From the NCBI GenBank assembly GCA_034189385.1, contig JAXHVD010000001.1, positions 160,001 through 224,000 of the forward strand: a stretch of 64,000 nt of DNA, in the 5' to 3' direction. Below the pieces are notes generated by a model, which was given only the letters and a program-made list of their open reading frames with translations, had not been told where the DNA came from and ran no database searches. Of the stretch, positions 46,883 through 49,392 are shown in pieces. The translations under genes and the position numbers were made by a program. Every line of letters begins with the position of its first letter. Within the stretch, counting starts at the first letter, position 1. This DNA comes from Thermodesulfobacteriota bacterium. GTDB taxonomy: Bacteria; Desulfobacterota; Desulfobacteria; Desulfobacterales; C00003060.

Positions 46883-47074
46883 TCAGGCCGGCTTTACGAC
46901 CAAGCCGGAACGGAGGCACCTTGTACATACCTTGATGCGCTTGACTCGGCCGTTGCTGATGGCGCGAACGCGCTGTAGATTTGGGTAGAAGCGTCGTTTG
47001 GTCAGGTTGTGGGCATGACTGACATGGTGACCGGTCATAGGTTTTTTTCCACATATTTCACAGACTTTCGCCAT
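46883..47074 (-). CDS. rpmB: 50S ribosomal protein L28
   Basis: [27 protein letters not shown]. Confidence 0.96.
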
Positions 47075-47221: not shown

Positions 47222-47680
47222 TTATGACTTATTACTGTCGGCGCTTATTGCCCGGGCTCTAACCTCCTCAACTTGTATTCCTTCCCGCACAAAGAGGGCC
47301 GCTGCCACACCGATGGGTCGTTTCCGCTCACCTGAACGGCCCCCTAAGCCTCAAGAAGGGCTCTTGTCTTTCAGAAAGCAGATCTCAATCTTATTTTTCT
47401 TGATCATGTCAAGGGCGGCAAAGGCACCGTTGACAAAGGCCGTGGTCACGTCGTCACCGGCAGGGGTGACGACCCTGGCCCGACCCTCTAAGACATCAAA
47501 GCCGTCGCCTCCGTCAAGGTCTGAGCGTGGCCTGGGGGTGGGCAGCCCTCCGAGTTCTTCAGGGCAGAGAGCAAGCACGGCTCCCTCAGAGATCCTCTCT
47601 AGGAGGGCCGGGCTGGGACTGGTCCGGCCATCGTAACGGCAATAGTGGCCCAGAAGGCAGGCACTTGCAGCAATCATCAC
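47222..47680 (-). CDS. DUF523/TudS (2-thiouracil desulfidase-like) protein, probable selenoprotein (UGA at 47351-47353)
   Basis: SACLLG..CRYDG, CPEELGGL.TPR, LKDKSPS-TGA-G; family-like GVAAALF..GI.V continues in frame to TAA at 47222-47224. Confidence 0.82.
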
Positions 47681-47990
47681 AAAAACTCCTCCATGGTTTT
47701 TACAAAGACCGCTAGAGTTATTTCCTGGCCCTTTCAAGGTTCCCTGTGCGGCAAAACAAGGTCGACGCTTTCTTCACTCTTCTCACGGCGGCAGAAGGTG
47801 CAGACAATATAGGGCCGACCAAGAAAAGGCAAGCGTATTTGTCCTCCCTTGCGGGCGGAGGGCGTCACTATTTCCTTGAGAACCATCCAGGGGCCATGTA
47901 GGATGCTTTCCGTCTTTTGAAAGGGCGCTGGATGGCGTCTGCAGGCAGCCAAGAAGAAATTGGCATTTCAGTCAGTTCAGAGGAAAGCCT

Positions 47991-48773: not shown

Positions 48774-48915
48774 GGGAGGTAGAGGCTGATGGAAAATGCA
48801 CATGTTCAAGTCATCCCTTTCTCTTCAAGCTCAGAAGCTCAGAGGCTAAAGAATCAGGCGTACTGAAGTGTTATTAGAGCAAATAGAAGGAGATCGGCAG
48901 AGACAAGGAGATCTT

Positions 48916-49392
48916 ATGGATGCAGGCGCTCTTAGTGCGTATTTTAAGAAATGCTTTCTGGCCGCAGATGGCCTGTGGTTTATGATGCTGGAAAAGGAGG
49001 ACTCCTTCGACAAGGCCCTTAAGATTGATAGAAAGGTGTGGGAGATCCTTCCCAAGATTCAGGCTAGAAAGATAAAGGAGCTATTTAATCTCAAGGGCGA
49101 ACATCAAGGGGACCTCCTCAAGGCCCTTGAATTCAAGTTGAGGGCCGAGGATTTCTTAAGCGACATCCAGTGCCAAGACGGTCGCATCAAGATTACCATC
49201 AGAAAATGTCCTTGGCTTGCACTGTTAAGAAAATCCCGGAGGGAGCACTTGGCAGAGAAAATCAGTGATGCCATATGCACGATAGAGTACGCGACGTTCG
49301 CCAACGAGTTTGTGAAGGGCTTAGACTTTCAGATCACATCAAGGCGTTGTTCCGGCAATGAGGTCTGTGCCTTCCTCCTTGGGCGGCCCTAA
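48916..49392 (+). CDS. DUF6125-like (V4R-related) protein
   Basis: AADGLWF motif with spaced Cys residues (CPW, IC, C..C). Confidence 0.65.
   Translation: MDAGALSAYFKKCFLAADGLWFMMLEKEDSFDKALKIDRKVWEILPKIQARKIKELFNLKGEHQGDLLKALEFKLRAEDFLSDIQCQDGRIKITIRKCPWLALLRKSRREHLAEKISDAICTIEYATFANEFVKGLDFQITSRRCSGNEVCAFLLGRP

Follow-up and report, generated by a model that had tools for sequence, protein, structure and literature searches.

A predicted selenocysteine codon at the third cluster-ligand position of a DUF523/TudS-type desulfidase gene

The minus-strand frame 47680..47222 of the window, by which we mean the whole 64,000-nucleotide stretch of DNA analyzed here, is very probably an intact gene for a stand-alone TudS-type desulfidase (DUF523, PF04463) whose UGA codon 110 is decoded as selenocysteine (Sec), the predicted third ligand of an iron-sulfur cluster. 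That codon 110 of this DUF523/TudS-type gene is a Sec codon is, in our opinion, almost certain. The positions discussed below are as follows.

47222..47680, minus strand: whole coding sequence of the predicted Sec-containing DUF523/TudS-type protein, from GTG 47680..47678 to TAA 47224..47222
47677..47675, minus strand: ATG at the start position common to most orthologs, from ortholog comparison
47686..47692, minus strand: GGAGGAG, read from the sequence as a putative ribosome-binding-site-like motif, upstream of both possible starts (5 nt from the GTG, 8 nt from the ATG)
47657..47659, minus strand: Cys8 codon (SAC motif), aligned with TudS Cys10, a cluster ligand there
47564..47566, minus strand: Cys39 codon (CPE motif), aligned with TudS Cys43, a cluster ligand there
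47558..47560, minus strand: Glu41 codon, aligned with the catalytic Glu45 of TudS
47354..47362, minus strand: Ser107-Pro108-Ser109 codons; by alignment, Ser107 and Ser109 correspond to the catalytic Ser101 and Ser103 of TudS
47351..47353, minus strand: in-frame TGA at residue 110, predicted Sec, aligned with TudS Cys104 (a [4Fe-4S] ligand)
47324..47339, minus strand: candidate SECIS hairpin with a 6-bp stem (CCGUUC/GAGCGG) and loop AGGU, conserved among orthologs and with an energy not above that of shuffled sequences
46883..47074, minus strand: rpmB (ribosomal protein L28), the next gene downstream on the same strand, presumably co-transcribed

The initial annotation had described an open reading frame that ends in LKDKSPS at a TGA and remains open beyond it, and both statements hold. 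Under translation table 11, the open reading frame 47351..47737 (-) stops at the TGA at 47353..47351; with TGA read as U, it continues as U-GLGGRSGERKRPIGVAAALFVREGIQVEEV... to the TAA at 47224..47222 (-). Translated in this way from the GTG at 47680, the frame has 42 further codons past the TGA (U-GLGGRSGERKRPIGVAAALFVREGIQVEEVRARAISADSNKS) before that TAA, and the resulting TudS-type read-through protein is 152 aa long, with U at residue 110.

The assignment of this protein to the DUF523/TudS family, also made in the initial annotation, is supported by both profile and structural comparisons. PF04463 (2-thiouracil desulfurase, DUF523/TudS) matches with 101.9 bits against a gathering cut-off of 34.7 (E = 4e-29) and is the sole Pfam family in the 152-aa protein, DUF1722 being absent. 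The match places residues 3–137 of 152 on profile positions 1–136 of 141; family similarity thus runs across the TGA. Among the NCBIfam models, none matches the read-through protein. A phmmer search of the PDB finds a single solved relative by sequence, TudS (6z92_A, E = 2.4e-17). The AlphaFold2 model, built from a 74-row alignment, has a mean pLDDT of 92.2, falling to 68 in the loop that follows the Sec (residues 111–120). TudS chains account for all five of the best PDB matches to this model (E = 4.4e-14 to 2.6e-13, TM 0.75–0.76, 40% identity), and the structure search returned nothing other than TudS chains at E 0.001. The resemblance to the family downstream of the TGA is thus found both in the profile match and in the modeled TudS fold (TM 0.76).

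The relationship to TudS allows individual residues to be placed. As reported in PMC10611767, the [4Fe-4S] cluster of TudS is ligated by Cys10, Cys43, and Cys104, so that the fourth iron remains available to the substrate; catalysis is aided by Glu45, Ser101, and Ser103, whereas the phosphate of 4-thio-UMP is contacted by Arg17. Among published TudS substrates, 4-thio-UMP is the best. In the phmmer alignment, ...LKDKSPS-U-G lies opposite ...LKEGSPS-C-G of TudS, so that U110 corresponds to Cys104, and the earlier placement of the TGA at the cysteine of the SPS-C-G motif is borne out. TudS residues Cys10, Cys43, Cys104, Glu45, Ser101, Ser103, and Arg17 correspond here to C8, C39, U110, E41, S107, S109, and R15; all three ligand positions are therefore occupied, two by Cys and the third by the UGA codon for the predicted Sec. 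When the protein is aligned with 73 full-length homologs from the database, U110 faces Cys in all 73; in this alignment, E41, S107, and R15 are invariant, and S109 is nearly so. Conservation extends into the C-terminal part of the protein, where G124 is invariant and V125, A127, A128, and L129 are nearly invariant.

The window protein has its domain, size, and fold in common with TudS (PDB 6Z92, 6Z93, 6Z96, and 6ZW9), a stand-alone desulfidase of thiouracil and 4-thio-UMP, and keeps all three ligand positions together with the counterparts of Glu45, Ser101, Ser103, and Arg17 in place. It differs from TudS in that the third ligand, a Cys in the latter, is encoded by UGA and predicted to be Sec, and in the loop after this ligand (residues 111–120), which is different and is the part modeled with lower confidence (pLDDT 68). 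RudS, a TudS-DUF1722 fusion that acts as a tRNA 4-thiouridine desulfidase (PMC11417400), likewise has the catalytic domain of TudS, with its cluster site of three cysteines; unlike RudS, the window protein has no DUF1722 domain.

Several independent observations bear on the decoding of the UGA. The genome from which the window comes (4.13 Mb in 64 contigs, 90% complete) encodes the Sec machinery: selA, a SelB winged-helix domain in a 637-aa frame, one tRNA-Sec (selC) with anticodon TCA, and a selD that itself contains one in-frame TGA (Sec-type SelD). A search with the read-through protein yielded 20 close loci from 61 genomes, in which the column of SPS-x-G is TGA in 18 and TGC in 2. Among the 19 orthologs of the genus, 18 have TGA at this column, the exception being locus L013, which has TGC; the other Cys form (L026, also TGC) lies outside the genus, in another family. 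Over the 44 loci examined, TGA occupies the column in 29, from four families of the order, and Cys in the remaining 15. The 29 UGA loci comprise the 18 genus orthologs and 11 loci from three other families.

The 32 codons downstream of the UGA are under purifying selection. In the 19 genus rows, their mean pS is 0.550 and mean pN 0.182 (pN/pS 0.331, compared with 0.257 upstream of the UGA), with pN below pS in 169 of 171 pairs downstream and in all 171 upstream. Variable columns after the UGA, counted over these 32 codons, number 20, 14, and 31 at the first, second, and third codon positions, respectively. Strain-variant contigs covering the codon (two in sequencing run X1 and one in X2) show no difference at the TGA among the matches listed. 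Downstream of the UGA, 9 of the 11 strain differences among the matches listed fall at third codon positions.

TGA also serves as an ordinary stop codon here. Within the window, 10 of the 37 long open frames end in it, and 11 of the 20 orthologs have it as their true terminal stop; a reassigned genetic code therefore does not explain the data, and a single mRNA of these orthologs would have one UGA read as Sec and a second read as a stop. In the orthologs ending in TGA (found among L010, L012, L014–L021, L023, and L024), this second UGA lies 35–77 codons after the Sec UGA.

Bacterial SECIS elements are stem-loops located just downstream of the UGA, with a G in the apical loop, as in the criteria of bSECISearch. 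The hairpin that had been pointed out 11 nt after the UGA, with its loop starting at 17 nt, is present as described: CCGUUC (47339..47334), AGGU (47333..47330), and GAGCGG (47329..47324). Its support comes from conservation and not from folding energy. Across the 18 Sec loci (17 distinct sequences), 89% of cells in the 6-bp stem are paired. One pair, which joins the third letters of an Arg codon and an Asp or Glu codon, is unbroken in all 17 sequences (AU in 8, GC in 5, GU in 3, and UG in 1); in the window, this wobble-wobble pair is U-G, arrived at through a synonymous CGA>CGU change plus a GAU>GAG change. When the partner is shifted by 1–3 columns, pairing of the whole tested structure falls from 75% to 28–54%. 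The covariation score of the hairpin is matched by 43 of 500 shuffles, and the RNAalifold consensus keeps 4 pairs at -0.92 kcal/mol. The 36-nt core folds at -8.5 kcal/mol (z = -0.48), with 57 of 200 shuffles folding equally well, and the 67 nt after the UGA give z = -0.01 against shuffles; energy alone thus lends a SECIS no support. A search of Rfam at E up to 10 returned no SECIS family and one chance snoRNA match. We regard CCGUUC-AGGU-GAGCGG as a probable SECIS. What chiefly argues for Sec is the conservation of the codon, the selection downstream of it, and the Cys/Sec column.

A lower helix around the hairpin (columns 7–12 with 36–41) was also considered and was dropped, 60.6% of its cells being paired. 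The selD of the same genome (contig C29, L003:1528-1566) was used as a positive control. Its in-frame TGA is followed by a strong stem-loop of 7 bp at -14.5 kcal/mol (z = -2.48), and the loop of this structure, CGGGA, begins at 16 nt from the UGA. The two hairpins have the same geometry, and the stem of selD is the stronger one.

The reading of codon 110 as Sec has to be weighed against two others. If the UGA terminated translation, either the gene would encode a fragment of 109 aa or it would be a pseudogene, and what follows the codon would be the relic of a reading frame. Such a reading agrees with the behavior of gene callers, which stop at this codon (46 of the best 120 protein-database clusters end exactly in ...SPS), and with a hairpin that is energetically unremarkable. 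It is difficult to reconcile, however, with a UGA that stays in the same column throughout 29 loci from four families (52–73% identity), or with the selection acting on the downstream 32 codons (pN/pS 0.33; pN below pS in 169 of 171 pairs). Moreover, the truncated product would be without the third ligand, the invariant G124, and the nearly invariant V125, A127, A128, and L129. We therefore consider termination highly improbable. The other reading takes the TGA to be an assembly or sequencing error for TGC or TGT, or else a codon read as Cys, Trp, or Gly through a reassigned code or near-cognate read-through. The occurrence of TGC at the column in two relatives (L013 and L026) and the origin of the window in a metagenome-type assembly speak for an error, but the same TGA is found in 28 other genomes, and the two strain variants in X1 and the one in X2 that cover the codon show no difference there among the matches listed. 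The complete Sec system of the genome and the common use of TGA as a true stop count against an error or a reassigned code as well, and this reading deserves hardly any credence. Decoding of UGA110 as Sec is thus the reading that we retain.

The Sec form is widespread, occurring in four families of the order. Matches at E <= 1e-15 occur in 121 of 401 genomes sampled from the order. Among the loci fetched, the column shows Sec forms in 21 of these genomes: 10 in the genus of the window, 6 in family f24, 2 in f32, and 3 in f59. In all, the Sec or Cys state was read, column by column, in 44 loci. Because a TGA inside a match is not always at the Sec column, every Sec call was checked by column. 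Thus, L027, L032, L050, and L053 have Cys at the Sec column; in the first three of these, the TGA flagged in the search closes the reading frame.

In the Sec forms from outside the genus of the window, U-G-x-G is followed immediately by an insert of 14 residues. This insert contains a 7-bp hairpin with loop [A/G]G[U/G][U/C], which starts 19 nt after the UGA; 75.7% of its cells are paired and three pairs show changes on both sides, with a score not beyond that of shuffles (64 of 500). The genus of the window has no such insert and has instead the 6-bp hairpin with a loop starting at 17 nt. The close Cys relatives L027 and L032 are also without the insert. The Cys form L034 retains it, with a decayed stem and a loop that has no G.

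Sec and Cys have replaced each other repeatedly in this group. The tree was built from 51 rows, consisting of 39 loci and 12 more distant Cys proteins chosen as an outgroup, and was rooted at its midpoint. Parsimony requires 7 changes between Sec and Cys, at least 4 of which are on well-supported branches; since the root is a midpoint root, any direction given to these changes is conjectural. The Cys form L013 is sister to the Sec form L015 with support of 100/95.

A Sec-containing DUF523 protein is already in the literature, and the caution of the initial annotation that such variants might have been catalogued was justified. The deep-Sep study (Xiao and Zhang, mSystems 2025) describes a DUF523 protein (COG1683, YbbK) predicted to contain Sec, from Desulfosarcina sp. 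BuS5 (PMC12013277); the available text of that paper presents it as known from one strain and reports no other TGA homologs (PMC12013277). A review from 2026 enters Sec-DUF523 as PF04463 with the motif SxSUG (PMC13188914). The family as such is therefore known from these two sources. The sequence printed for BuS5 in supplementary Table S2 of PMC12013277 is identical, letter for letter by eye, to the translation of our locus L051. The window protein, in which S-P-S-U-G fits the S-x-S-U-G motif of the catalogued form, belongs to the same Pfam family, bacterial order, and clade as the BuS5 protein and has Sec at the same column (SPS-U-G). It is approximately 54–55% identical to the BuS5-type loci L044 and L051, with which it falls in one 36-row clade (support 94/76). 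The two types differ in that the BuS5 form has the 14-residue insert and the 7-bp hairpin (loop at 19 nt), whereas the genus of the window has no insert and the 6-bp hairpin (loop at 17 nt).

What the present analysis adds to this prior work is a new subgroup, a much wider distribution, a structural reading of the Sec position, the two hairpin layouts, and the repeated exchange of Sec and Cys. Our literature search found no link between the Sec-DUF523 selenoprotein and Cys104 of TudS, and nothing relevant came up for Sec in the role of a [4Fe-4S] ligand. The one paper found that mentions both TudS and selenocysteine treats the latter as a substrate of CyuA. According to the text available to us of the 2026 review, binding of metal by Sec has been shown experimentally for FdhA, FrhA, and FrhD only, and Sec-metal or Fe-S binding in other selenoproteins is deduced from their Cys homologs (PMC13188914).

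The comparison with TudS suggests how the protein may work. The conserved hairpin with loop AGGU, which is small and begins 11 nt past the UGA, would be recognized by SelB carrying Sec-tRNA, which would insert Sec. By analogy with the solved TudS structure, Cys8, Cys39, and Sec110 would hold three irons of the cluster; for Sec110, a ligand role is suggested by its alignment with Cys104. The fourth iron might then bind the thio-group of the substrate, predicted from TudS at about 40% identity to be a 4-thio or 2-thio uracil compound, and Glu41, Ser107, and Ser109 may assist hydrolytic removal of the sulfur via a [4Fe-5S] intermediate. Selenium may modulate the cluster's Lewis acidity or stability, or else the release of sulfide. 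Searches of the 90%-complete genome yielded no SelU and no ThiI above the cut-off.

We are inclined to go somewhat further and to propose, with moderate confidence, that natural non-redox desulfidases whose catalytic [4Fe-4S] cluster has a selenolate ligand are widespread in sulfate-reducer-type bacteria and not limited to a single strain, with repeated Sec/Cys swaps that include near-identical natural pairs, and with a 14-codon SECIS insert that has been gained or lost. An alternative is that Sec110 is inserted and is no simple cluster ligand, serving instead as a reactive handler of chalcogen (for example, through a selenosulfide or diselenide with released sulfide or selenide), or that the enzyme acts on seleno-nucleobases in place of thio-nucleobases. 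Sec is reactive in most characterized selenoenzymes, metal binding by Sec has been demonstrated in just the three proteins named above, and one RudS variant without a ligand cysteine stayed active (PMC11417400), so that two ligands can suffice. Nevertheless, the Sec110 column is an invariant Cys in the 73 homologs and a crystallographic Fe ligand in TudS, and Sec and Cys exchange repeatedly among close relatives without any other change in the active site, which suggests an equivalent role for the two residues. A seleno-nucleobase substrate is disfavored in that SelU, the maker of 2-selenouridine, is one of the proteins not found in the 90%-complete genome. We consider this alternative unlikely and favor the placement of Sec110 as a cluster ligand.

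These results matter in two respects. The database clusters that end in ...SPS are gene calls cut at the Sec codon, and consequently many genomes and metagenomes of the sulfate-reducer type have the enzyme wrongly annotated as a fragment. Furthermore, Sec is predicted here at a ligand position of a [4Fe-4S] cluster that would act as a Lewis acid and not as an electron carrier. Natural sister proteins with Sec and Cys, such as L015 and L013, should allow the effect of selenium at an Fe-S ligand position to be studied cleanly. If a selenolate-ligated catalytic cluster is indeed formed, they would constitute ready-made matched enzymes for studying selenium as an Fe-S ligand, a role that, in the available text of the review cited above, is deduced for almost all such selenoproteins (PMC13188914).

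The DUF523 gene is adjacent to rpmB in 21 of the 39 related loci, with gaps of 20–410 nt; these loci are from several families of the order and include both Sec and Cys forms. In the window, a RelA/SpoT gene follows beyond rpmB and an RNase_H_2-family gene precedes the DUF523 gene, both on the opposite strand. In locus L039 (genome G186), a TGC stands where the sister locus L035 has a TGA stop, and the DUF523 frame continues in frame into rpmB, giving 224 codons in all and apparently fusing the protein to ribosomal protein L28 by read-through.

The genome of the window also encodes a RudS-type paralog (PF04463 + DUF1722, 318 aa) on the separate contig C23 (L046:994-1950, minus strand). It reads ...NSPSSG..., with Ser at the position of the third cluster cysteine of TudS and RudS; in RudS itself, mutation of the cluster cysteines abolishes activity in most cases (PMC11417400). 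Elsewhere in the window, a 174-aa open reading frame at 48868-49392 (+) matches DUF6125 and, more weakly and below the threshold, the L-2-amino-thiazoline-4-carboxylic acid hydrolase family.
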